Shown one piece after another: positions 10,295 to 39,874 of a stretch of 64,000 nucleotides of DNA; positions within the stretch are counted from its first letter, which is position 1, and the number at the start of each line of letters is the position of its first letter. The stretch is taken from contig JAKAPM010000003.1 in the NCBI GenBank assembly GCA_021807085.1, forward strand, positions 2,014 to 66,013, written 5' to 3'. The position numbers were made by a program, and so were the translations under genes. Origin of the DNA: Nanobdellota archaeon. Its GTDB lineage: Archaea; Nanobdellota; Nanobdellia; Parvarchaeales; Parvarchaeaceae. The notes under the pieces are model-generated. The model saw only the letters and a list, made by a program, of their open reading frames with translations, ran no database searches and was not told where the DNA came from.

Positions 10295-11368
10295 ATGAAA
10301 AGTGCGCACTTGTTTTTGATCGCGCTGGCGGTCGCCGCACTGCTGGTTAGCGGTGTTAGCGAGGCTAACGCGTCTTCAGTATCCGCCTCTTTTTCTGTGC
10401 TGAATACTACAGTAGGGATAAACGGCAACGTTTTCTTCAATGTATCAGCAACTTTCCCAAACCAGACTAACTATTCTATTTATCTGAACAGCACCAAAAT
10501 CTACTCTAGTTCGTTTCAGGCTGGATATAACGGTTACAAAATTGTGGCGTACAACGTATCCAACAGATATTACGGTCTCTACCAACCTTCCGTAAGATTC
10601 AGCATCATGAACGCACCTTTGGATTCAAACACTTCACTTTATGTAAAGCCGACTTCTGGGTTCGGTTTTGTCGACTATACCAACATCACGGAAGAGGTAA
10701 ACAATACCGCGTCCATAATGATAAAAATACTGAATTCCGGCAATACACCGCTGAATTTCAGCTGGTTTCTACCTGTTATAAAAGGCATATCAATCAGCCT
10801 GAACTTTAACCAGAGCTTCAGACTGTTTCCAGGGGGAATATACTCCATCCCGATACATTTCGGCCTCTCGAACAGTTACCAGAGCAACATAAGTTTCCAG
10901 TTCAGCGCAAAGTTCATGGACGTGATGATGACGAAAAATTACACAACCTCCATAATCAAGCCGGTGGTGAATTTCACACTAGAGTCTCTCAAGACCGCTA
11001 AACTGAACAGCACGACACAGCTGTGGTACGCAAACATCTTAAATTTCAACAATGTGCCAATAAACGCGACACTAGAATTCTTGCTCAGTTACAACAACAG
11101 CAGGTTTTATTATAATAAGTCCTATCTTATAACCCCCTCTACCAAGAACATCTCAGTTTTGCTGCCGGAGAGCAAAATCTTGTCTGTAACCTTGTTTTAT
11201 CCTTCATCATCTCTCGCAACGGAGAGCCAGGAGCTATTTTCCGCACCTCAACCAACTGCGAGTATACTGAGTGGACTGTCCGGCGGCCTGGGCTACATAG
11301 TGCTTACAGTCTTGATAATAGTAGTATTTGTGGTCATACACTTAAGGGTGAACAGGAGGAAGAGATAG
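10295..11368 (+). CDS. Secreted/surface glycoprotein (signal peptide, numerous N-x-S/T sequons, C-terminal TM anchor)
   Basis: 357 aa. N-terminal hydrophobic signal (LFLIALAVAALLVSG), more than 25 NxS/T sequons, C-terminal TM (YIVLTVLIIVVFVVI) followed by a basic tail. No recognised catalytic motif. Confidence 0.5.
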   Translation: MKSAHLFLIALAVAALLVSGVSEANASSVSASFSVLNTTVGINGNVFFNVSATFPNQTNYSIYLNSTKIYSSSFQAGYNGYKIVAYNVSNRYYGLYQPSVRFSIMNAPLDSNTSLYVKPTSGFGFVDYTNITEEVNNTASIMIKILNSGNTPLNFSWFLPVIKGISISLNFNQSFRLFPGGIYSIPIHFGLSNSYQSNISFQFSAKFMDVMMTKNYTTSIIKPVVNFTLESLKTAKLNSTTQLWYANILNFNNVPINATLEFLLSYNNSRFYYNKSYLITPSTKNISVLLPESKILSVTLFYPSSSLATESQELFSAPQPTASILSGLSGGLGYIVLTVLIIVVFVVIHLRVNRRKR

Positions 11369-11369
11369 C

Positions 11370-12056
11370 ATGAAACTACCACTGCAGCAGTTGAAAAGCG
11401 GACGCTGGATATTCGAGATATACGTGGTCGCGGCGACAATTATGCTGTTTCTGTTCGCGTTTTTGTACTTAGGGCTGCCCGTAACGGTAGTAGATGTGCT
11501 CGCCTTCGCTGCGGTCGGATTTGCATTTATATTTTTCAAAAAACTAGTGGCACTTCTATTCAATGTGCATGTAAGCGGAAATATATGGATAGCCGGCATA
11601 ATCTTTTCCGTTGTGGCGACGCTGATAGCGTCTAGTTTCGGCATGCCGATAATAATACCTTTGTTCAACTTCAACAAGTACAGCAGAAGGAAAACACTCA
11701 CAGGGCTTAAAAGGGGGGAGATAAACGCACACGAAAAATGGAAGGTAGCTGTGTTCTCCACGCTGGCGCTTTCATTCATCGCCATGCTTACTCTACTTGC
11801 ATGGGGAAGGTACGGTGGAATCACCTTTTTCGCAGCCGGAATCGCCATTGCGATGTTCGTTTTGGTGGATTTTCTTCCCTTCGAAAAATTCGACGGTACT
11901 ACGCTGATTTACCACAACAATTTGGTTTATTATATTACATTTATGCTGTTAATCCTGTTCACAGCCACCGGTTTGATATCATACAGTTGGGTACTTCCGG
12001 TTTTCATAGCTCTCCTGGTTTTCAACATCGCTACGTATATAATGAACCTCTGGTAG
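11370..12056 (+). CDS. Polytopic integral membrane protein, function unknown
   Basis: 228 aa, about 6 predicted TM helices; start 2 nt after the glycoprotein stop, so probably co-transcribed. Confidence 0.4.
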   Translation: MKLPLQQLKSGRWIFEIYVVAATIMLFLFAFLYLGLPVTVVDVLAFAAVGFAFIFFKKLVALLFNVHVSGNIWIAGIIFSVVATLIASSFGMPIIIPLFNFNKYSRRKTLTGLKRGEINAHEKWKVAVFSTLALSFIAMLTLLAWGRYGGITFFAAGIAIAMFVLVDFLPFEKFDGTTLIYHNNLVYYITFMLLILFTATGLISYSWVLPVFIALLVFNIATYIMNLW

Positions 12057-23082: not shown

Positions 23083-24216
23083 ATGAAGTTCGTGCACAGG
23101 CTGGCTGTCTCCGTTGCGGTGATAGTGGTCGTAGCGGTTGCACTGGTAATGTATACTGGCGGGAAGGGTCACAGCAGTGGCTATGAGTACACTTCCATCC
23201 TTGTGCCGGGATGTTCGGCGTGTACAGACATATCCTCGTTCTATACTCTGCTTTCCACGTACAATTTCTCACTATCGAAAGCCTACAGCTTAGGTAGTAA
23301 GTACGGCAACTCGCTGATAGAGAACTATTCCGTCGCGAACCTTCCGTCCGTTGTGATGAGTGCGACTAACGCCTCTGCCAACATATTTTACGGACTAATA
23401 TACCTGAATGTTTTCAACTTGGTGGGAAACTCACTTATTCTGAACACACCTTTCACGGCAGGTCTTTACCGTAACGTTACCTTCTATGACATAATCCAGA
23501 ACAAGACCATCGAGAGCCTAGATATATACAACCAGTCTGATGTCTACAACATCTCATCTAAACCATCATACGAGACCTATATAAACCCTTCCCAGTTCCT
23601 GCTTTTATCGAACTCTTCTCCCATATCTTCAGGGAACAAGACCGTTATAGACTTCATTTACGGCGATTCTCCCTTTTCAGCACTACAGACGATTGTTCTA
23701 TTCACTGCTCTGTCTTCCTTCGGTAATTTCTCCGATTATTCCACTATGAGATCTACATCCGTCGCCTTCTCTCAAGGAGAGGTCATAGGCCCTGTATACT
23801 CCTACAACCTAACCGCTGCATACTACTCGAGCAATTACTTCTCCCTCCGCATATACAACGTAAGCTCGCCGGCAACAGTCGCAGACACATCAGTCCAACG
23901 CGAACTATTTGAATTCGACCAGAACGCGCTCTCCCCCGCCTTCGGGAATGTCGGTAACTTTCTGCCTTTTCTTAACATAGGAGGCAGATATATCTCCGTA
24001 TCATCGATGCTGAACCCATTCTATTTCTCCAACATGCAACTGTCGAAGTTTTACAGCGAAATGCGGACCAACTCCACTCTTGGTAGTATGTTCAATGATA
24101 GTGTTGCCTTTGCGCAGGCCGTGCTGTGTTCTGACATAGCTAACTCCGCTAGTATCTGTTCGACTCCACTGGTAGAATACGAGACCAATGCCATCTATAA
24201 GGACCTATTGACTTGA
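23083..24216 (+). CDS. Membrane-anchored extracellular glycoprotein with CxxC motif (function unknown)
   Basis: 377 aa. N-terminal signal-anchor (LAVSVAVIVVVAVALV), VPGCSAC motif shortly after the anchor, about 20 NxS/T sequons. Starts 2 nt after the surE stop. Confidence 0.4.
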   Translation: MKFVHRLAVSVAVIVVVAVALVMYTGGKGHSSGYEYTSILVPGCSACTDISSFYTLLSTYNFSLSKAYSLGSKYGNSLIENYSVANLPSVVMSATNASANIFYGLIYLNVFNLVGNSLILNTPFTAGLYRNVTFYDIIQNKTIESLDIYNQSDVYNISSKPSYETYINPSQFLLLSNSSPISSGNKTVIDFIYGDSPFSALQTIVLFTALSSFGNFSDYSTMRSTSVAFSQGEVIGPVYSYNLTAAYYSSNYFSLRIYNVSSPATVADTSVQRELFEFDQNALSPAFGNVGNFLPFLNIGGRYISVSSMLNPFYFSNMQLSKFYSEMRTNSTLGSMFNDSVAFAQAVLCSDIANSASICSTPLVEYETNAIYKDLLT

Positions 24217-31457: not shown

Positions 31458-33875
31458 ATGAAATCGCCCATCATCATACTTGTAGTTCTGCTGCTAGTTA
31501 GTGTGGGTACCGTCCACGCGTCTATAACTCTCAACATGAATGAAATCCCGCTGCAGGGACAGGCGTGCACCTTCCTGTCGCCCCAGCAACTGCAGACAGC
31601 CTACGGTTTCGGCCAACTCTATAGTTCCGGCATAAACGGTAACGGCCAGAGTGTAGCTATAATAGTGGCGTATGGAGACTCCAACCTCCAGGCCGACGTA
31701 AATGCGTTCGACTCGCAATACAGTTTGCCGTCGCTGTCCGTTGGATCAAACCTTATGGTGGTAACTCCGTTCGGAAAACCGCAAAGCAGTTTCACGAACT
31801 GGACGGCTGAGACTGCCCTAGACGTTGAGACTGTGCATTCGCTTGCGCCCGGAGCCAGGATATATGTAGTGGAAGCCCCAAACGAAAACTCTCTTTTCTC
31901 CGCGATAAACTATACTGTTAATAACCTGCCCGTAACTGTAATCTCCGTGAGCTGGGGAAGTTCTGAATCCAGCTACACCAGCAGCGACATAAGTTATCTC
32001 AACAGCGTATTATACAACGCGGAGCAGAAAGGAGTGAATATCTTCGTTGCTTCCGGTGATACAGGCGCTTATAACTCCCAAAGCTTCCCAAACGTCAATT
32101 TTCCCGCTTCCAGTCCGTACGTAGTGTCTGTGGGCGGCAGCACCCTCTCGGTGAGTTCTTCAGGCTCCTATCAGGGCGAAACCGCTTGGAACGGCAGCGG
32201 GGGCGGTAACAGCGAGTACTTCTACAGACCCCCTTTTCAGCCCGATCTCAACAGCTATAGGATGGTGCCTGACGTGGCTTTTAACGCTGGTACGCCTGTT
32301 TGCATAGAGTCCAACCTATCCATCAGGGGATATTACGGCACTAGTCTATCCGCCCCATCCTGGGCGGCAATAGACTCGCTGATAAACCAGAAGGTAAAGG
32401 GGGACAAAGCATTCCTGCTGCAGGAGCTCTACAAGACGTATTCCGACTACGGTTCGCTGGCATTCAACAGCATAACCAGCGGATGCAACGGCCTGTACTG
32501 CGCATCAAACAGTTATAACGAGGTCACAGGACTCGGATCGCCGAAGGTATACCAGCTTGTTCAAATAATATCCAAGGCCCAGTACAAGATAACGTTCGAT
32601 CCGTCAACGACCGATTCGGTTTTCAGCGTGAACGGCATCAATTACTCCTCAACTGTATCGCTAAACTTTACGTATGGACAGAAGGTGAGCATAATAGCGT
32701 ATTCTGGAAAAGTACCGGATGTAGGGGTGGTAAATTTCAGCTCGTTCTCCGGTATTGTTAACGCCGCTGACTCCGCAGTTGTGTTTTTCGTAAACACCTC
32801 CGGCATACTCAGCATCCATTTCAACGAGTATTTCATAGTATCCCTCAATGGTGTTATGGGTAATTCTACTTCGGCTTCGTTAATGAAGAACGGCAGTTCT
32901 CTCGACCTTACCTCTCCTTTGTACGTCAACTACAGCGGCGTGCAGTACACTTTAGTAGGTTTCACTATGAACGGCGGACCTGTGGTGTATTCCGGCGCTT
33001 ACAGTATAGATGTGTACGCACCGATGAATGTCAGTTTCGTTTGGCATAAGATTGCGAAGACGCCAATAGCTACCGAACCGATACCATCGCTGTTGGTTAC
33101 AGTTTCGTTCTATTCTTTTGCGCCTCTTTCAAACAAAATTACACATGAGTTGGCCACTCTATCTGGATCTTCCGGTGTGTTTGCTGTGAATGGAACAGAG
33201 ATAAGTGTTTACAGCAAACCGCAAGTAGTCTCGGGTTACAGGTACGAATTGGCGAATTTCACCACAGCCTCCGGGCAGCAAATAATAGTAAACTTCACGA
33301 AAGAAAAGTCTATAAACGTCAGTTTCTACTCCGAACAGGATGTGAGCATAGTTCCCAGCTCCCTACAGGTAGGTTTTGACGGGGTGAACGAAACTTACAT
33401 AAACAGCACCACCATATGGGGTCCGCTGTCTGGCGGTGTAACTATCGAGAGCGTCCTGTACAAAGGAGTAGAGATGCTGGATCAGCCAGTCCGCCTGTAC
33501 TCCAATTCCAGCGGGGCTAACCTTACGCTTCCTATAAGTGATGTTACAGTCCGGCTAGTAACATATTTCGGCATACCTGTGGTAGGGGCAGGAATCTACC
33601 TATCATTCGATAACATATCAATATATAACTCCACAAGTATTTCCGGCAGCACCACATTCTACAACATCCCCCAAAAACCATATAGCCTCAGAATAAACGC
33701 ATACGGTACAAAATATACGTTTAGTAATCTAGACACAGCATCGCTGGACTTGACTGTGTCCCCTATACTGTACCAGCTGTACATAATACTGGGACTCGTT
33801 CTGGTTGTGCTGTTGTCGCTGTTCCTGTTCGAGAGGCTGAAGCACCGCTCCAACAAGAGTCACAGTATTAAATAG
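31458..33875 (+). CDS. Sedolisin-like (peptidase S53) secreted serine-carboxyl protease with large glycosylated C-terminal region and C-terminal TM anchor
   Basis: About 805 aa from the MKSPIIILVVLLLVSVGTVHA signal peptide. The ORF extends upstream to 31386, but the signal peptide fixes the start at 31458. S53-type motifs: TAETALDVE (catalytic Glu/Asp), ASGDTGAY (oxyanion Asp), GTSLSAPSWAA (catalytic Ser). More than 30 NxS/T sequons and a C-terminal TM ILGLVLVVLLSLFLF. Confidence 0.75.
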   Translation: MKSPIIILVVLLLVSVGTVHASITLNMNEIPLQGQACTFLSPQQLQTAYGFGQLYSSGINGNGQSVAIIVAYGDSNLQADVNAFDSQYSLPSLSVGSNLMVVTPFGKPQSSFTNWTAETALDVETVHSLAPGARIYVVEAPNENSLFSAINYTVNNLPVTVISVSWGSSESSYTSSDISYLNSVLYNAEQKGVNIFVASGDTGAYNSQSFPNVNFPASSPYVVSVGGSTLSVSSSGSYQGETAWNGSGGGNSEYFYRPPFQPDLNSYRMVPDVAFNAGTPVCIESNLSIRGYYGTSLSAPSWAAIDSLINQKVKGDKAFLLQELYKTYSDYGSLAFNSITSGCNGLYCASNSYNEVTGLGSPKVYQLVQIISKAQYKITFDPSTTDSVFSVNGINYSSTVSLNFTYGQKVSIIAYSGKVPDVGVVNFSSFSGIVNAADSAVVFFVNTSGILSIHFNEYFIVSLNGVMGNSTSASLMKNGSSLDLTSPLYVNYSGVQYTLVGFTMNGGPVVYSGAYSIDVYAPMNVSFVWHKIAKTPIATEPIPSLLVTVSFYSFAPLSNKITHELATLSGSSGVFAVNGTEISVYSKPQVVSGYRYELANFTTASGQQIIVNFTKEKSINVSFYSEQDVSIVPSSLQVGFDGVNETYINSTTIWGPLSGGVTIESVLYKGVEMLDQPVRLYSNSSGANLTLPISDVTVRLVTYFGIPVVGAGIYLSFDNISIYNSTSISGSTTFYNIPQKPYSLRINAYGTKYTFSNLDTASLDLTVSPILYQLYIILGLVLVVLLSLFLFERLKHRSNKSHSIK

Positions 33876-33903: not shown

Positions 33904-36144
33904 ATGGAGAACAGGGCTAAAGACTATACCTTGTCTAGGGAAGAAGGGGAAATAGTCCTTACATACAAAGTGGATTTGAACATCCTCTACCCAAATCCCG
34001 AAGACAACGAGGCCATTTTCGAGAAGATAGTTGACGCGATACTCGAATCTGGAAACATAACATCCCTGATAATAGCAAGCGACAGGAACTATATCTACAC
34101 CAAAAACGAGGTGGAGCTCTTCAACAATCTCGCCGACGTATACAGGCAAATATTGGAATCCGACTTGGTTGTACAGTTCGGAGTGGATGCCCAGAGAGAA
34201 TTTCCAGGCGCCATATCCTCCTTCAACTACGTGGTGTTCAACAGGCTGAAGAGGGACCCGATAGGCGCGTATGTTTTCGCCGTCAGGGCCGAGAGGGAGA
34301 TAAGGGTGATGGCGGAGGGCAATAAATCAGAGGAACTCGGTTCTATAGTGCAGCGCTTTTCCAAGCTGCTCGAAGCGCTCTCGTCCGCAGAAATAATAAA
34401 GAGGAGCGCCAGTTACCTCCTCGGCTACAAGATAGGCGACAGAACGCCGTACAGGTCTTTGCTGAAGCCTTTGATACGCCCTAATTTCACGTACACTCGC
34501 ATAATGTCCGAGCCCCCTATGTCGGCAGTAGAGGTGGATACATACAAAATAGCCGACGCAGACCAGACAGAAGTCACAATATACAAGATTCCAGGAATAT
34601 CGCAATATCTGTACCACTTGTCACCACCAGAACTGCTTCTCAACGTGGACGAATACAACGTTCTGGACCAAGTTAGGACAAATTTGATAAACTACAGGCC
34701 CCAAGAGGAGGAATTTACCGATCCTGTCAGGATGAGGGACGTGTTTTTCAACCTCGCGAAGGACATGATAATAGACATAAGTGGCAAAAACAAGTACAAC
34801 ATAGGCTTCAAAGACGTGGAAAAACTTGCCAGGATACTGGTTAGGCTGACTGTAGGTTTTGGGATAACCGAAGTCATACTGTCGGATTCAAAAGTTGAAG
34901 ATGTTTATCTGAATTCCCCCATAAGCCACTCACCACTGTTCGTGAAGCACGGAACCTACGGCGAGTGCGCGTCCAACATAATTCCGAATGCCAAGGAAGT
35001 GGATGCATGGGCATCGCGCTTCAGATTGATGTCTGGCAGGGCGCTCGATGAGGGACACCCCGTCCTGGATACGGAGCTTATAACCGGGCTGTTGAGGGCC
35101 AGAGTGGCAATTTCTCAGAAGCCTCTTTCTCCGTTCGGCCTGAGTGTAGCGTTCAGGCGCCATAGGGATAATCCTTGGACTATTCCACTTTTCATAAACA
35201 ACGGTATGGTGTCCCCGTTCGCTGCCGGTTTGCTCTGGTTCTGCGTAGAAGGCGCCAGGACACTTCTGATAAGCGGCACCAGGGGCGCTGGAAAAACATC
35301 GTTCTTGACTGCCCTGATGCTTCTCCTCATGAAGAGATACAGGATAATAACAGTGGAGGACACGCTGGAGATACCTACCGACGCGTTCACCAATCTCGGC
35401 TACGATATCTTGTCGCTGAAAGTCCAGAGCGCTATAACCGGCGAAAAATCTGAAATGACGGCGGAAGAGGGCATACGAACTACCCTTAGGCTGGGAGATA
35501 GCTCTCTAGTCGTAGGGGAGGTCAGGAGTACTGAGGCTAAGGCGCTGTATGAGGCTATGCGCGTGGGGGCGCTTTCTAACGTCGTTCTCGGTACAATACA
35601 CGGCGAGAACGCGTACGGTGTGTTCGATAGAATAGTCAACGACCTAGGCGTGCCGAGGACAAGTTTCAAGGCAACTGATCTTATCATATCCATCAACAAG
35701 ATAAAGACAGAAGATAGACTAATCGAGAGGAGACGGGTGCTAAATATAACAGAAGTCAGGAAGGACTGGACAGACGATCCGCTATACGAGAATGGGTTCG
35801 TGGACCTTGTCAAATACGACATAAGGAAAGACATACTATTGCCGTCAGACGACCTCTTGGAAGGAAACAGCGCGGTAGTTAAACAGATTGCCTCAAACGT
35901 CAAGGACTGGGCCGGAAACTGGGACGCGGTTCTGGACAACATAAACGCCAGGGCAGACATATTTAAAATGATCGTGGAACATTCCAAGAGGAAGGGGGAC
36001 AACTCGTTCCTCGAGGCAGAATTTTCGGTCTCAGCGATAGACCAATATTATGATATAGTTAACAAGCTCAAGGAGGAGTACGGTTCGGCCGAAAGGTCCG
36101 GAATAATCAAGGCGTTTGACTTATGGCTAAGAGAACAAAAATAG
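33904..36144 (+). CDS. Type IV pilus/archaellum-type secretion ATPase (FlaI/TadA/GspE family) with long N-terminal extension
   Basis: 746 aa. Walker A GTRGAGKTS; Asp-box/Walker B region LVVGEVRSTEA; His-box GTIHGEN. About 420 aa precede the Walker A, longer than in typical FlaI. Confidence 0.8.
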   Translation: MENRAKDYTLSREEGEIVLTYKVDLNILYPNPEDNEAIFEKIVDAILESGNITSLIIASDRNYIYTKNEVELFNNLADVYRQILESDLVVQFGVDAQREFPGAISSFNYVVFNRLKRDPIGAYVFAVRAEREIRVMAEGNKSEELGSIVQRFSKLLEALSSAEIIKRSASYLLGYKIGDRTPYRSLLKPLIRPNFTYTRIMSEPPMSAVEVDTYKIADADQTEVTIYKIPGISQYLYHLSPPELLLNVDEYNVLDQVRTNLINYRPQEEEFTDPVRMRDVFFNLAKDMIIDISGKNKYNIGFKDVEKLARILVRLTVGFGITEVILSDSKVEDVYLNSPISHSPLFVKHGTYGECASNIIPNAKEVDAWASRFRLMSGRALDEGHPVLDTELITGLLRARVAISQKPLSPFGLSVAFRRHRDNPWTIPLFINNGMVSPFAAGLLWFCVEGARTLLISGTRGAGKTSFLTALMLLLMKRYRIITVEDTLEIPTDAFTNLGYDILSLKVQSAITGEKSEMTAEEGIRTTLRLGDSSLVVGEVRSTEAKALYEAMRVGALSNVVLGTIHGENAYGVFDRIVNDLGVPRTSFKATDLIISINKIKTEDRLIERRRVLNITEVRKDWTDDPLYENGFVDLVKYDIRKDILLPSDDLLEGNSAVVKQIASNVKDWAGNWDAVLDNINARADIFKMIVEHSKRKGDNSFLEAEFSVSAIDQYYDIVNKLKEEYGSAERSGIIKAFDLWLREQK

Positions 36145-38252
36145 AGAAAGTTCCGGAGCAGGACAACTCCCGGAAAGACAACATAGATTTCGCCTACAAC
36201 TACTATGAACCTGGGGATATAGTGTCACAGGATATGTACACGAAAGATCAGAAGGTAAGGGAAGACCTGAAATCTTTGGAGTACAAAATATTCAAGGAGA
36301 AGAACCAGACCTTTCTGTCCAAAATCGTAGTTTTCGGCGCTGGCACGATAGGTAAGGCGATAAAGTTTAACATAAACAAAGACGAGGAGCGCAAATTAAA
36401 CACAATACTCTACTTACTCGGGTATAATTTTGACGCCAAGCAGCTGTATGGCTTCTCCATCTTCACGTTAGTACTAGGTTTTCTCCTAGGCCTTCTACTG
36501 ATACTCATAAGACAGTTCATGTTCGGCATAATCGCCATATTCTTGGGGATAATCGCACTTTTCGGCGTGCAGTATTTTCCGAAGCAACAGATGGCAGTCA
36601 GGATGAGCAAGGCTTCTGGAGACCTGGTCACTACTATACTGTATATAGTGATATTCATGAGGCAGACGCCGAACCTTGAAGGAGCCGTGCAGTTCGCATC
36701 CGACAACCTGAACAGCTATATCGCCTTCGATTTGAAGAAACTCATATGGGACACTGCCGCCAGAAAATACGCCAACATAAAGGAAGCTCTCGACGACTAT
36801 TCAAAGAAGTGGATGAAGACTAGCCCGGCTTTCACCGACGCAATATTCCTTATAGAGAGCTCAGTCTCGCAGGAGGAAGAGTCGAGGAGGTTGGAACTTC
36901 TTGATGAGGCATCAGATAGGATACTGTCGGGCACATACAATTCTATGACGAAGTACGCCTCGTCTCTAAAAGAGCCGCTGAATACGATATACATGCTGGG
37001 TATGGTGCTGCCTGTTCTGGGCCTGGTGCTGGCGCCAATGCTGATGGCTTTCGTGGCCATACCAGATTTCGGCGTCCTACTCGCACTAATGTACGATATA
37101 GCGCTACCGCTGCTGGTTTATTTTCTGATTAGGACTAAACTTCTGACAAGACCGAGCGGTTTCGGCGCTCCGGACCTCAGCAATATACCTAACCTTCCAA
37201 AACTCGGGACGTTTAACATAAAGCTTGGCTCTAGGAAGGTACCTATAAACGCACTCATACCCGCTGCAGCGGTCTTCGCGCTATTTATGGTACCCGTCTA
37301 TTTCCTGTCCCCGTATCTCTCGGTGTTCGGGCCCAATCAGATATACATATCTATGTTTATAACCGCCGGGATAGGCTTTTCCCTTTTTGTCTACTTCAAA
37401 CTTTCTGTAGTGCAGCTGAGAGAGAGCGAGGAGGAACTTGTCAATATAGAATCCTCGTTCGGCGTAGCTCTCTCCCAGATGGGCTCTTTCTTGGCGCAGG
37501 GTTACCCTGCGGAGACCACTATAATAAAGGTTAGCGACAACATGAAGAATACGCCAGTGGCCTCCTTTTTCCAAATAACAGTCAACAATATGCGGAAGCT
37601 AGGCATGTCCCTGCGCGACGCGTTTTTCAACAAAATAAACGGCTCGGTTAGGTTCTTCCCTTCGCCGATGATAATCTCGGCGACTCGGATATTCATAGGC
37701 TCCGCTGAGAAGAGCGTCGGAAACGCCGCATCCGCCGCCATGTACGTGTCAAAGCATCTTTCCAATCTGAAGAAGATAGAGGAACAGGTGCGTTCCCTCT
37801 TGGAAGAGGTTACTTCTGGTATGAGGGTTGAGGTCGGTCTGCTGAGTCCTGCGATGGCCGGCATTGTGGTGGGACTTACCACCCTTATAGGAACCGTGCT
37901 TAGGTCACTCTCTGGCAGTATAAGCGCCATACAGACGGGTGTATCGAGTACATCGGCTCCTGGAGGTATCTCCTCTGTCGTGCCCTTTGCTTTCGGTCTT
38001 TTTAACCTTAGTGGCGGTGCCATCCCGCTATACACTTTCCAGATAATAATAGGGATTTACCTGGTCTCGCTGGCTTCAATAATAGGCTACGCGATATCTA
38101 CTATATCGCAGCCAGGCGATAGAATACTAATGAGGGAGACCATCGCCTCTATGCTGCTGATGTCAATGATATTGTACGTGCTGATAACCTTTATAGTCAC
38201 CCTAGTTTTCTCATCAGTCGGTGGACTAGTGATAAGCGCCACTCATATCTAG
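36123..38252 (+). CDS. Type IV pilus assembly polytopic membrane platform protein (FlaJ/TadC/T2SS-F-like)
   Basis: 709 aa. Two blocks of TM helices separated by cytoplasmic helical regions, as in the duplicated T2SS-F architecture. Overlaps the ATPase gene by 22 nt; the call rests mainly on topology and context. Confidence 0.5.
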   Translation: MAKRTKIEKVPEQDNSRKDNIDFAYNYYEPGDIVSQDMYTKDQKVREDLKSLEYKIFKEKNQTFLSKIVVFGAGTIGKAIKFNINKDEERKLNTILYLLGYNFDAKQLYGFSIFTLVLGFLLGLLLILIRQFMFGIIAIFLGIIALFGVQYFPKQQMAVRMSKASGDLVTTILYIVIFMRQTPNLEGAVQFASDNLNSYIAFDLKKLIWDTAARKYANIKEALDDYSKKWMKTSPAFTDAIFLIESSVSQEEESRRLELLDEASDRILSGTYNSMTKYASSLKEPLNTIYMLGMVLPVLGLVLAPMLMAFVAIPDFGVLLALMYDIALPLLVYFLIRTKLLTRPSGFGAPDLSNIPNLPKLGTFNIKLGSRKVPINALIPAAAVFALFMVPVYFLSPYLSVFGPNQIYISMFITAGIGFSLFVYFKLSVVQLRESEEELVNIESSFGVALSQMGSFLAQGYPAETTIIKVSDNMKNTPVASFFQITVNNMRKLGMSLRDAFFNKINGSVRFFPSPMIISATRIFIGSAEKSVGNAASAAMYVSKHLSNLKKIEEQVRSLLEEVTSGMRVEVGLLSPAMAGIVVGLTTLIGTVLRSLSGSISAIQTGVSSTSAPGGISSVVPFAFGLFNLSGGAIPLYTFQIIIGIYLVSLASIIGYAISTISQPGDRILMRETIASMLLMSMILYVLITFIVTLVFSSVGGLVISATHI

Positions 38253-38737
38253 GGATTTGGATTATATTTTATCTTCCCGGTTACGGGGTTTGTGAGTATG
38301 CTTCCGATTGATACGTCCCTCTCATTGAACGCTCCGTTGTAGTATGTGTACACTATACTAACTGAATTGCTGTTTCCATTGAATGAGCCCGGTACGCTGC
38401 ATGGCGTCTGCTGGCCTGTATACAGTGTGTAATTGAGGCACGAGAAACTAGTCAGGTTTGCTCCATTAGATGCGACGTATATGGAAATTATATTTATTTT
38501 CTCCGCTAGAGAGTCGGACACTGTGAACTCCAGAGTCGTCGAGTTGGCCACCGCTTCCTTGACAATAGCACCACTGAACCCATTTATTACCGTGTTGGGC
38601 AGGGAGCTTCTAGAATTGAATATACCGTAAGCTAGTACTATAGCCACACCGACCACTATTACAGCTATAGCCCACGCGTACGTGGTTAGAAATTCCAAGG
38701 CAGCCTGGGATCTCTGCATATGAGAATAAAGATGCAC
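38249..38737 (-). CDS. Type IV pilin-like protein with class III (prepilin) signal peptide
   Basis: 162 aa. Probable start at Met7 (38719): MQRSQAALEFLTTYAWAIAVIVVGVAIVLA, a short polar leader followed by a Q/A-x-A-L-E-hydrophobic helix with Glu at +5. NxS/T sequons in the globular part. Confidence 0.6.
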   Translation of the reverse strand: MHLYSHMQRSQAALEFLTTYAWAIAVIVVGVAIVLAYGIFNSRSSLPNTVINGFSGAIVKEAVANSTTLEFTVSDSLAEKINIISIYVASNGANLTSFSCLNYTLYTGQQTPCSVPGSFNGNSNSVSIVYTYYNGAFNERDVSIGSILTNPVTGKIKYNPNP

Positions 38738-38749
38738 TAACTTAAAAAC

Positions 38750-39874
38750 TTAAGGCGCCACCCAACTCACGTTCGTAGCGACTCCGTTGTTGCCGTTTCC
38801 GCTGTAGTCGTTGGCGTTGCCGTCCAGCGGCCACCACCCAACCAAATTAGAATTAGAAACCGGACCGCCACCAAGTCCCTCGTTGTAAAGTGCAGTTATT
38901 TGCGACCCCGACAAAACACTATTGTAAACTTGAAAATCGCTCAATTTTCCAGTAAAGTACGAAGAAATGCTACTCCACGTCCAGCCGCCCAACTCGACCC
39001 AGCCAGTAGCAGGGCTCTGTGGTGTATAATCCCCATATCCTAGATCATAATTGGAATTAATGTAATAATTTACTCCACTTGTTGAATTTATTATCATAGC
39101 TACAAAGTACCAGCCTGTTGACCCAAATTGAGCGGTTCCTAACCAGTGTACGCATTCATATAAACCAATAAGATTATTTCCATCGTGACCGCTACTGAAC
39201 TGATTATTCACACCAACACCAAGAGCGTAACCTCCGTTTGAACCACAGATGCCATTTGTAACCCCGATTGTTATGAAAGCGCCGGCTTCTGATGTTGAGG
39301 GGAGGTATACCCAGCCAGTAATTGTAACGGAAGAGATTGCGGTGGTAGGTACTGTACTTGTATTGATTATGCTATTTACACCGTTAAAATTGCCAACAAC
39401 ATTAGGTTTTGTACTAATCGCAATGCCTGTAGCCTTACCCTCAGAGAAGTAAGGTCCTGGGAATACCTGTCCCGGCTCAGTATAAGTTATGGTTACTTGG
39501 TTTGAGTAAGAAACACCAGTGGTTGTTGTGCAAGCATCTGGTACGAATGCCAGTTGTGTTTGTCCGGTAGTAATAATCAACGCCGTCGGTATAGAGACGG
39601 CTTGCCCATCTGAACCAGTACTATTAATTCGCGTTATATTTATTGTATAGCCTTGGCCATTTAATATTTGCAATACCAACGCACCCCCTTGGATACAAGC
39701 AACTTGTATACTGAATCCTCCAAAGCCAGTTACTGTGTTAGAAGTAGAACTGGACGGCGAAAAAACACCGAATGAATAGAGAACCGCGGCAACTATCACT
39801 ATTATGAGGATGGCCCATCCATAGGTCATCATGTATTCCAGTGCGGATTGCCCTTCACTCATATTTCTTTTCAT
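38750..39874 (-). CDS. Large type IV pilin-like protein with class III signal peptide and C-terminal LamG/concanavalin-A-like lectin domain (candidate adhesin pilin)
   Basis: 374 aa. MKRNMSEGQSALEYMMTYGWAILIIVIVAAVLY prepilin-like N-terminus. C-terminal ~180 aa shows a LamG-like jelly-roll pattern (GWVYLPS...AFITIG...LSDFQVYNSVLSGSQITALYNEG...LVGWWPLDGNANDYSGNGNNG). Confidence 0.6.
   Translation of the reverse strand: MKRNMSEGQSALEYMMTYGWAILIIVIVAAVLYSFGVFSPSSSTSNTVTGFGGFSIQVACIQGGALVLQILNGQGYTINITRINSTGSDGQAVSIPTALIITTGQTQLAFVPDACTTTTGVSYSNQVTITYTEPGQVFPGPYFSEGKATGIAISTKPNVVGNFNGVNSIINTSTVPTTAISSVTITGWVYLPSTSEAGAFITIGVTNGICGSNGGYALGVGVNNQFSSGHDGNNLIGLYECVHWLGTAQFGSTGWYFVAMIINSTSGVNYYINSNYDLGYGDYTPQSPATGWVELGGWTWSSISSYFTGKLSDFQVYNSVLSGSQITALYNEGLGGGPVSNSNLVGWWPLDGNANDYSGNGNNGVATNVSWVAP

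Follow-up and report, generated by a model that had tools for sequence, protein, structure and literature searches.

Genetic organization of the locus

A stretch of 64,000 nucleotides from a Nanobdellota archaeon (contig JAKAPM010000003.1 of assembly GCA_021807085.1), referred to here as the window, contains four adjacent genes whose products resemble the core machinery of archaeal type IV pili: a secretion ATPase, a polytopic platform protein and two putative pilins of unequal size, the larger of which ends in a LamG/concanavalin A (ConA)-like domain (Table 1). Positions follow the numbering of the window, and L0xx and P0xxx are labels for the loci and proteins compared. A listing of the open reading frames (ORFs) confirmed the four genes where an earlier note, made from the letters of this DNA alone, had placed them, with the minus-strand pilin pair converging on the plus-strand pair formed by the other two. 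The ATPase and platform genes share 22 nt, and a further 4 nt are common to the 3′ ends of the genes for the platform and the small pilin. None of the four is a chance ORF, since all have many homologues, and an identical locus is also present on a 297-kb ENA metagenome contig. With regard to translation starts, independent gene calls on identical metagenome contigs prefer the 156-residue form of the small pilin, beginning MQRSQAALEF at 38719, and gene callers likewise prefer the 370-residue form of the large pilin, beginning MSEGQSALEY at 39862.

Table 1. Features of the pilus-like locus and its upstream neighbour
Feature	Position	Strand	Remarks
Membrane-anchored S53 (sedolisin/kumamolisin-type) serine protease	31458..33875	+	Neighbour of the putative pilus operon
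T2SSE-type secretion/assembly ATPase, 746 residues	33904..36144	+	
Walker A GTRGAGKTS, ATPase residues 458-466	35275..35301	+	G458, T459, R460, G463 and K464 invariant in a 27-sequence alignment
His box GTIHGEN, ATPase residues 563-569	35590..35610	+	G563, T564, I565, H566 and G567 invariant in a 27-sequence alignment
Platform protein, 709 residues, predicted T2SSF (PilC/GspF/TadC/FlaJ) fold	36123..38252	+	
Small stand-alone putative pilin, 156 residues	38249..38719	-	Full ORF 38249-38737, 162 residues
Large modular putative pilin	38750..39874	-	374 residues from ATG 39874; 370 residues from ATG 39862
Highly conserved C-terminal tail of the large pilin, ...LVGWWPLDGNANDYSGNGNNGVATNVSWVAP	38753..38860	-	68% pairwise identity
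LamG/ConA-like jelly-roll module of the large pilin, hypervariable in the family	38861..39397	-	Pfam, fold, pairwise identity
Large-pilin leader (MKRNMSEG or MSEG), predicted cleavage before Gln, hydrophobic α1 helix QSALEYMMTYGWAILIIVIVAAVLY	39764..39874	-	Sequence

The window appears to belong to a Parvarchaeales-like DPANN archaeon. A DPANN host had been guessed from the sequence, and the taxonomy of the homologues, those named being Candidatus Parvarchaeota, Parvarchaeum (including ARMAN-4) and Nanoarchaeota, supports that guess. The window also contains genes for complex I, SDH, citrate synthase and the like, a gene content with which Parvarchaeota have been described (PMC5864196, PMC7779479).

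The assembly ATPase and its platform protein

The ATPase matches the Pfam T2SSE profile (PF00437) well above threshold (E=1.4e-20, 73.8 bits versus a gathering score of 24.9, residues 357-591). In addition to the Walker A and His boxes, it contains TVEDT at residue 483 and LVVGEVR at residue 535, in the Walker B/Asp-box region, and these motifs are invariant in 27 homologues; the profile and the motifs together uphold its initial description as a secretion ATPase with Walker A, Asp and His boxes. Its nearest solved structures are Archaeoglobus fulgidus GspE (afGspE; 2oap, 1.6e-25), CpaF (5e-17) and FlaI (1.3e-14), and its NCBIfam matches are FlaI (NF058587, 6e-37), TadA (TIGR03819, 8e-34) and BasE (NF053672, 2e-23). 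It remains under the cut-off of each of these families, with 127.6 of 550 bits for FlaI, 117.4 of 373 for TadA and 83 of 1000 for BasE. Since FlaI is the best NCBIfam match, the locus might be taken for the motor of an archaellum, and hence for a motility apparatus. The FlaI score nevertheless lies far below its cut-off, no archaellin, FlaF/G, FlaH or FlaC/D/E was found among the window ORFs tested, in line with what the earlier note had said of the accessory genes, and the pilins have no Arch_flagellin match. The archaellum reading was rejected on account of the missing accessory genes and the sub-threshold score, and its likelihood is practically nil.

The N-terminal region of the ATPase had been described as unusual over ~420 residues, a figure that had to be cut by about half. 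BasE aligns to residues 212-694 (E=1.9e-23) and afGspE from residue 297, which corresponds to its own residue 108, so that the real excess over afGspE, BasE and FlaI is only ~190-210 residues; residues 212-457 align to the ordinary N-terminal domain of afGspE/BasE/FlaI-type ATPases. The extra ~200-residue part is well conserved (with P30, E33, G50, Y65, D118, P119 and R128 among the invariant residues) within a family of proteins of 745-785 residues. Archaeal type IV filament (TFF) ATPases are known to bear subsystem-specific extra domains (Sivabalasarma and Albers 2026 preprint; Makarova 2016). A scan of one genome per species retrieved at least 590 relatives of the ATPase, the best 80 of which are titled Parvarchaeota, Woesearchaeota, Pacearchaeota, Nanoarchaeota, Nanohaloarchaea SG9 and similar, and the pair formed by the long ATPase and the platform protein is conserved across DPANN lineages.

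Two side observations concern these relatives. The homologues P0100 (1281 residues) and P0102 (1092 residues) contain inserted intein/LAGLIDADG domains (PF14890, PF14528). The ATPase-platform pair is also found on contigs of metagenome-assembled genomes titled "uncultured Methanosarcinales archaeon" or "Armatimonadota bacterium" (L016, L024, L031, L049 and others), which suggests that such bins are mislabelled or contaminated.

The platform protein itself falls short of the T2SSF profile (PF00482; E=0.027, 14.9 versus 25.2 bits, residues 450-563), whereas 16 of its 27 homologues match it, the best at 8.8e-6; a profile built from the 27 and run against PDB sequences retrieved nothing relevant. 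The protein has about nine hydrophobic segments, and its AlphaFold2 model (predicted local distance difference test, pLDDT, 73.8) consists of a cytoplasmic helical bundle followed by transmembrane helices, arranged twice in succession. This modelled repetition is obtained even though hhalign gives a probability of 0.12 when the N-terminal half is compared with the C-terminal half. The platform gene adjoins the ATPase gene in 70 of the 84 loci examined. Because of the matches of its homologues, the modelled layout and the adjacency to the ATPase gene, the 709-residue protein does not lack T2SSF domains and is predicted to be a T2SSF-fold platform, a polytopic membrane protein with a cytoplasmic helical bundle whose gene is coupled to that of an ATPase. 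The earlier note had proposed such a platform overlapping the ATPase; the overlap is real, and the fold was confirmed by structural comparison.

Two proteins with a shared pilin-type N-terminus

Both minus-strand products begin like prepilins. With a slash for the predicted cleavage site, the large pilin starts MKRNMSEG/QSALEYMMTYGWAILIIVIVAAVLY, with Gly at -1, and the small one starts MQRS/QAALEFLTTYAWAIAVIVVGVAIVLAY, with MQRS as its leader and a predicted mature start QAALEFLTTYAWAIAVIVV. The two share the pattern [GS]/Q-x-A-L-E-[YF], a short leader, a Glu at +5 (assuming cleavage before Gln) and a hydrophobic helix of 20-22 residues. They are the only two ORFs in the 64 kb that combine [GAS]Q...E[YF] with an uncharged stretch of 15 residues at the ORF N-terminus. 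Conservation among 50 homologues of the large pilin reaches at least 90% at each of Q5, E9 and Y10 (Q+1, E+5 and Y+6), in the numbering of the 370-residue form. In the wider pilin family the -1 residue is Ala, Ser or Gly, and the consensus reads K-[SA]/Q.

The AlphaFold2 model of the large pilin (pLDDT 81.5) comprises a helix at residues 6-30, a β-sandwich at 43-147 and a LamG jelly-roll at 156-368, and thus predicts a lollipop architecture in which an N-terminal helix protrudes from a globular β domain. An alignment of the small pilin with the large one spans residues 1-80 of the latter (E=1e-13), and the small pilin is homologous to the pilin module of the large one. A Cys-x12-14-Cys loop is present in all nine small-pilin homologues read. 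The motif, the helix and the modelled β-sandwich speak against both being ordinary membrane proteins, which the earlier note had mentioned as something they might prove to be; its claim of prepilin-like N-termini with Glu at +5 stands for both, except that the small pilin carries Ser instead of Gly or Ala at -1.

A TTTTTAA sequence at 38742-38748 on the minus strand lies 23-29 nt upstream of the small-pilin ATG (38719), within the 30-nt gap that follows the large-pilin stop. This spacing would fit an archaeal TATA box and a leaderless transcript, so that the small pilin may be transcribed from a promoter of its own.

The family to which these proteins belong is large. The large pilin has 1904 matches, mostly in Parvarchaeota including ARMAN-4, and an exhaustive search with the small pilin returned 683 representative clusters at E<=1e-3, with proteins of 85-1960 residues (P0284-P0429; for example P0285, P0290, P0293, P0320 and P0322). 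Across the 683 clusters the module always stands at the extreme N-terminus, in some cases alone (144-165 residues), in others ahead of Laminin_G_3, DUF2341 or β-propeller (Lactonase/YNCE) modules. Such diversity would also be expected of a bindosome-like or pseudopilus display, in which short membrane-proximal structures hold diverse proteins with class III signals (LamG, DUF2341 and β-propeller fusions), much as Sulfolobus BasEF does with sugar-binding proteins. The number and dispersal of the LamG pilins, the alignment of BasE over most of the ATPase and a proposal of functionalised TFF machineries with class III signal peptide (SPIII) binding proteins (Sivabalasarma and Albers 2026 preprint) all lend something to this possibility. 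On the other hand, the BasE score is a small fraction of its cut-off and is exceeded by those of FlaI and TadA, the locus has a conserved stand-alone small pilin of typical major-pilin size, and imaging has shown pili-like links that join ARMAN cells to wall-less Thermoplasmatales, according to citations in PMC5498576 and PMC5864196. A display of this kind is unlikely, and a true pilus is the preferred reading of the two proteins.

A variable lectin-type module between conserved ends

The large pilin matches Laminin_G_3 above threshold (E=5.9e-13, residues 168-326, 49.7 versus 27.6 bits), and Foldseek pairs its modelled LamG domain with pentraxins (TMt 0.69-0.74), the LamG domain of PAPP-A and laminin LG4-5, all with probability 1.0. 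The C-terminal domain is accordingly predicted to fold as a jelly-roll of the ConA/LamG/pentraxin type, so that the LamG/ConA-like assignment of the earlier note has held against both the profile and the structure prediction. Conservation along the protein is a mosaic: the mean pairwise identity of 50 family members is 76% in the leader and helix, 45% in the pilin β domain, 24% in the LamG core and 68% in the last 36 residues. This is what would be expected of a conserved assembly scaffold bearing a diversifying binding module. No conserved ligand site could be assigned in the hypervariable LamG core.

The conserved tail is modelled as β strands (residues 340-344, 360-363 and 366-368) with a pLDDT of ~83-95, and its motif (GWWPLDGNANDYSGNGNNG) recurs inside the 1006-residue relative P0290, again after a LamG domain. 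The GWWPLDGNANDYSGNNNNG tail may serve to dock subunits onto one another, or it may be an edge strand of the LamG fold displaced by circular permutation. It resembles the strand usually preceding Laminin_G_3 domains, which would suggest such a permutation. Native and permuted LamG constructs scored alike in Pfam (52.4 versus 52.7 bits), and a phmmer search against the PDB for such a permutation returned nothing meaningful.

Genomic linkage of pilins and ATPase

Linkage between a LamG pilin and the long ATPase is not confined to the window. At a distant DPANN locus of the Woesearchaeota type (L052), a 416-residue Laminin_G_3 protein (1.9e-21) is encoded directly upstream of the long ATPase, and its N-terminus, KKSQAAIEFLSTYGWA, is of the same type as that of the large pilin. 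This is an independent linkage of a LamG pilin with a long ATPase, and it supports the pilus reading. In addition, the EY.MTYGWA (LamG-type) and EFLTTYAWA (smaller) pilin subtypes lie 2-3 kb apart in five metagenome contigs. A general synteny of pilins and ATPase was considered and rejected: in a strict scan of 80 DPANN ATPase loci, the Q...E[YF] motif was found beside the ATPase only in L052 and L085.

The loci of closer relatives place limits on the cassette. In L005-L010, whose ATPases are 73-75% identical to that of the window, the order S53 protease, ATPase, platform and agmatinase is kept. In L085 (GCA_027338625.1) the ATPase is 86%, the platform 83% and the small pilin 66% identical. 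The pilin genes seem to have entered the space between platform and agmatinase step by step and in a lineage-specific manner, and the four-gene cassette as such is lineage-specific, because the pilins are missing or partial at the relatives' site and the closest LamG-pilin homologue is a singleton.

The ATPase-platform loci outside Parvarchaeales (L012, L044, L061, L083 and ~40 others) have conserved neighbours of their own that are absent from the window. These are a divergent coiled-coil protein of ~140 residues, a protein of ~224 residues and two to three tandem membrane proteins of ~190 residues with no Pfam match. Genes downstream at these loci encode other pilin-like N-termini, one with a weak Arch_flagellin match.

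Interpretation and alternatives

The best reading of the locus is that it encodes the core of a type IV pilus (type IV filament) of the archaeal kind, probably adhesive and equipped with a modular lectin pilin. We give this reading a probability of roughly 75%. In the corresponding mechanism, both prepilins would insert into the membrane, where the short leader would be cut before Gln+1 by a class III signal peptidase whose gene would lie elsewhere in the genome. The hexameric ATPase would dock on the platform, at the cytoplasmic helical bundles of its T2SSF fold, and ATP hydrolysis would lift pilins from the membrane into a helical filament, with their N-terminal helices as its core and Glu+5 neutralising the neighbouring N-terminus. 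The 156-residue pilin would be the likely major (shaft) subunit, and the 370-residue protein a modular minor pilin whose pilin module sits in the filament, most plausibly at the tip. From there the variable LamG jelly-roll could be displayed as an adhesin, probably directed at the glycans or glycoproteins that a host cell or a biofilm matrix presents, and the pilus could in this way attach cell to cell.

Several observations weigh against this reading. The Ser at -1 of the small pilin is atypical, and neither full-length pilin was matched by the curated pilin or class III signal hidden Markov models of Pfam and NCBIfam; the N-terminal 64-65 residues, searched in the same collections at E<=10, gave only spurious membrane-protein matches. 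Family members of up to 1960 residues are hard to fit into a filament except at its tip. No A24 prepilin peptidase was found among the window ORFs tested, which agrees with the earlier note on that point and contradicts its description of the machine as complete: within the window it is not, because the signal peptidase is missing. The genomic record is also uneven, as L005-L010 have no pilin gene between platform and agmatinase, L085 has only the small pilin at the site, and most LamG-pilin homologues are scattered singletons amid housekeeping genes. The adjacency of pilins and ATPase in the window could consequently be incidental.

If so, the putative pilins might be type II signal-anchor surface proteins or S-layer-associated adhesins that are independent of the ATPase and platform and were inserted beside them by chance in a compact genome. 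This would account for the empty or half-empty site in relatives, for pilin genes that share the direction of the agmatinase gene and are packed tightly behind it, instead of going with the ATPase operon, for homologues placed between ribosomal-protein or ATP-synthase genes (the closest LamG-pilin homologue, at 46%, is a singleton between an EF-2 gene and an A/V-ATPase operon) and for the lack of a pilin profile match. A plain anchor, however, has no need of a near-invariant Q-x3-E-Y before its helix, a motif that marks Epd and Flp pilins for processing and assembly (PMC3875500); nor would it explain why a LamG pilin independently adjoins the long ATPase in L052, or the predicted lollipop architecture. 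We regard such a chance insertion as improbable, and the proteins continue to be treated here as pilins.

A different question is what the filament would be for. Its main role might be the exchange of DNA or other macromolecules between symbiont and host, or a twitching-like retraction, and not static adhesion. Type IV filaments are functionally versatile, and a relevant passage by Golyshina et al. speculates on DNA exchange through type IV pili in the ARMAN-Cuniculiplasma pair (PMC5498576). The locus and the window nonetheless contain no second (retraction) ATPase and no DNA-binding or DNA-translocation gene, and the lectin-type module points to adhesion, which leaves exchange or retraction as the main role very improbable next to an adhesive pilus.

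A broader proposal can be put forward only tentatively, and we consider it somewhat doubtful. The module [KR][SAG]/Q-x-A-L-E-[YF]...TYGWA might define a large pilin superfamily missed by profile searches and centred on Parvarchaeales-like acidophilic DPANN archaea. It would be the cognate substrate of the pan-DPANN pair of long ATPase and 700-residue platform, and would serve as a universal plug for fast-diversifying host-recognition modules (LamG, DUF2341 and β-propellers, in proteins of up to 1960 residues). If this were true, modular pilins would determine the host range of episymbiotic archaea.

Neighbouring genes

The gene directly upstream of the ATPase, separated from it by 28 nt, encodes the protease listed in Table 1, which is 805 residues long according to gene callers. 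It matches Pfam Peptidase_S8 (2.2e-9); against the PDB its hits are kumamolisin-As (3.1e-33, residues 66-395), sedolisin (8.6e-14) and TPP1 (5.8e-11), with no subtilisin among the matches listed. It therefore appears closer to the sedolisin/kumamolisin family (S53) than to S8 subtilisins. An N-terminal signal-like segment can be read from its sequence, together with a β-rich, sequon-rich region of ~400 residues and a C-terminal transmembrane anchor, in agreement with the membrane-anchored S53 protease first noted at this place. Its position directly upstream of the ATPase is kept only in Parvarchaeales loci (11 loci), and may reflect either functional coupling to the putative pilus operon or just local synteny.

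Elsewhere in the window, the plus-strand ORFs 10295-11368 and 23083-24216 encode predicted secreted or anchored proteins that are rich in N-glycosylation sequons and have no Pfam match; they may be other components of the cell surface. The first of them is directly followed by a 228-residue polytopic membrane protein (11370-12056). The latter was considered as a candidate prepilin peptidase and rejected, since it has no Pfam match and no GxGD-type motif.

Significance

For DPANN archaea, whose way of life is attachment to other archaea, the means of recognising and holding a host remain an open question. In published genome analyses of Parvarchaeota, "virB11 and TadC" were all that was listed, without any pilin (PMC7779479), and a 2016 survey could identify no pilins for nanoarchaeal ATPases (PMC4858521). 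What is new here is, in the first place, that the pan-DPANN long ATPase and platform are directly linked in a genome to a specific candidate pilin family. In the second place, LamG proteins are recognised as fusions to a pilin module whose Epd/Flp-like Q..EY signature escapes Pfam and NCBIfam, and the large pilin displays a mosaic pattern of conservation. The window yields testable candidates for host attachment and a sequence motif with which such pilins can be sought in other genomes.

Comparison with known type IV filaments

There is ample precedent for archaeal TFF systems composed of an ATPase, a platform and pilins, with the peptidase as a separate component (PMC4858521; Sivabalasarma and Albers 2026 preprint), and the locus is an uncharacterised case of this known type of machine; it reveals no new type. 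Among its closest parallels is the Epd pilus of Methanococcus maripaludis (TFF "system 1", DUF361 pilins), with which it shares an archaeal ATPase and a TadC/FlaJ-type platform. The pilins of M. maripaludis have leaders of 5-13 residues ending in Gly, with Gln at +1 and Glu at +5, and are processed by EppA (PMC3875500); the window pilins likewise have +1 Gln and +5 Glu behind a short leader. Moreover, some pilins of Epd-like system 1 carry adhesin-like extra domains, and this system has been reported in DPANN archaea (Sivabalasarma and Albers 2026 preprint), as have other TFF subsystems. In contrast to Epd, the platform of the window is a single 709-residue gene product instead of the product of two genes, the ATPase bears a ~200-residue extra N-terminal region, the pilins have Tyr or Phe at +6, a globular β-sandwich and no Pfam or NCBIfam pilin match, and there is neither a dedicated peptidase nor an 11-gene cluster near the locus.

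A second set of likenesses leads to the Tad/Flp pili, given that the ATPase matches TadA (8e-34) and CpaF structures (5e-17). Tyr at +6 is a hallmark of Flp pilins (PMC3875500); the large pilin, G/QSALEY, fits their GxxxxEY pattern with Glu at +5 and Tyr at +6, and the small one reads S/QAALEF. The window pilins would thus combine the Epd (+1 Gln/+5 Glu) and Flp (GxxxxEY) signatures. However, Flp pilins are ~50-80 residues long and lack a globular domain, whereas those of the window have 156 and 370 residues and β domains (by homology in the case of the small one), and the ATPase misses the TadA family cut-off (117 versus 373 bits).

The ATPases of type IV pilus subclade 4F (Makarova, Koonin and Albers 2016) often have an extra variable N-terminal domain, like that of the window, and its loci include a cytoplasmic coiled-coil protein; a divergent gene for a coiled-coil protein lies upstream in the wider DPANN loci of the family to which the window ATPase belongs. 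This gene is absent from the window, and the N-terminal domain of the window ATPase is not Cys-rich, unlike that of subclade 4F. The likeness to subclade 4F and to system 1 is one of circumstantial features, as distinct from the position of the ATPase in a tree.

As for the lectin-type module, the 2017 account of Mia14 by Golyshina et al. reports, in the passage that concerns them, that jelly-roll LamG-like proteins are expanded there and "generally abundant in DPANN", that some are linked to type IV pili loci and that a role in host interaction is proposed (PMC5498576). Mia14 belongs to Micrarchaeota and the window to Parvarchaeales, and that same passage does not describe its LamG proteins as pilins that bear a class III signal together with a pilin module. 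The same overall design is found in PilC of Streptococcus sanguinis, which combines a class III signal, a pilin moiety and a C-terminal jelly-roll of the ConA/LamG superfamily. This protein contains immunoglobulin-like and ConA-like lectin modules, binds glycans and has been modelled at the pilus tip together with PilA/PilB (PMC9934059). PilC is bacterial, belongs to another machinery and has no detectable sequence similarity to the large pilin of the window, and the latter, unlike PilC, keeps Glu+5 and ends in its conserved 36-residue C-terminal tail.

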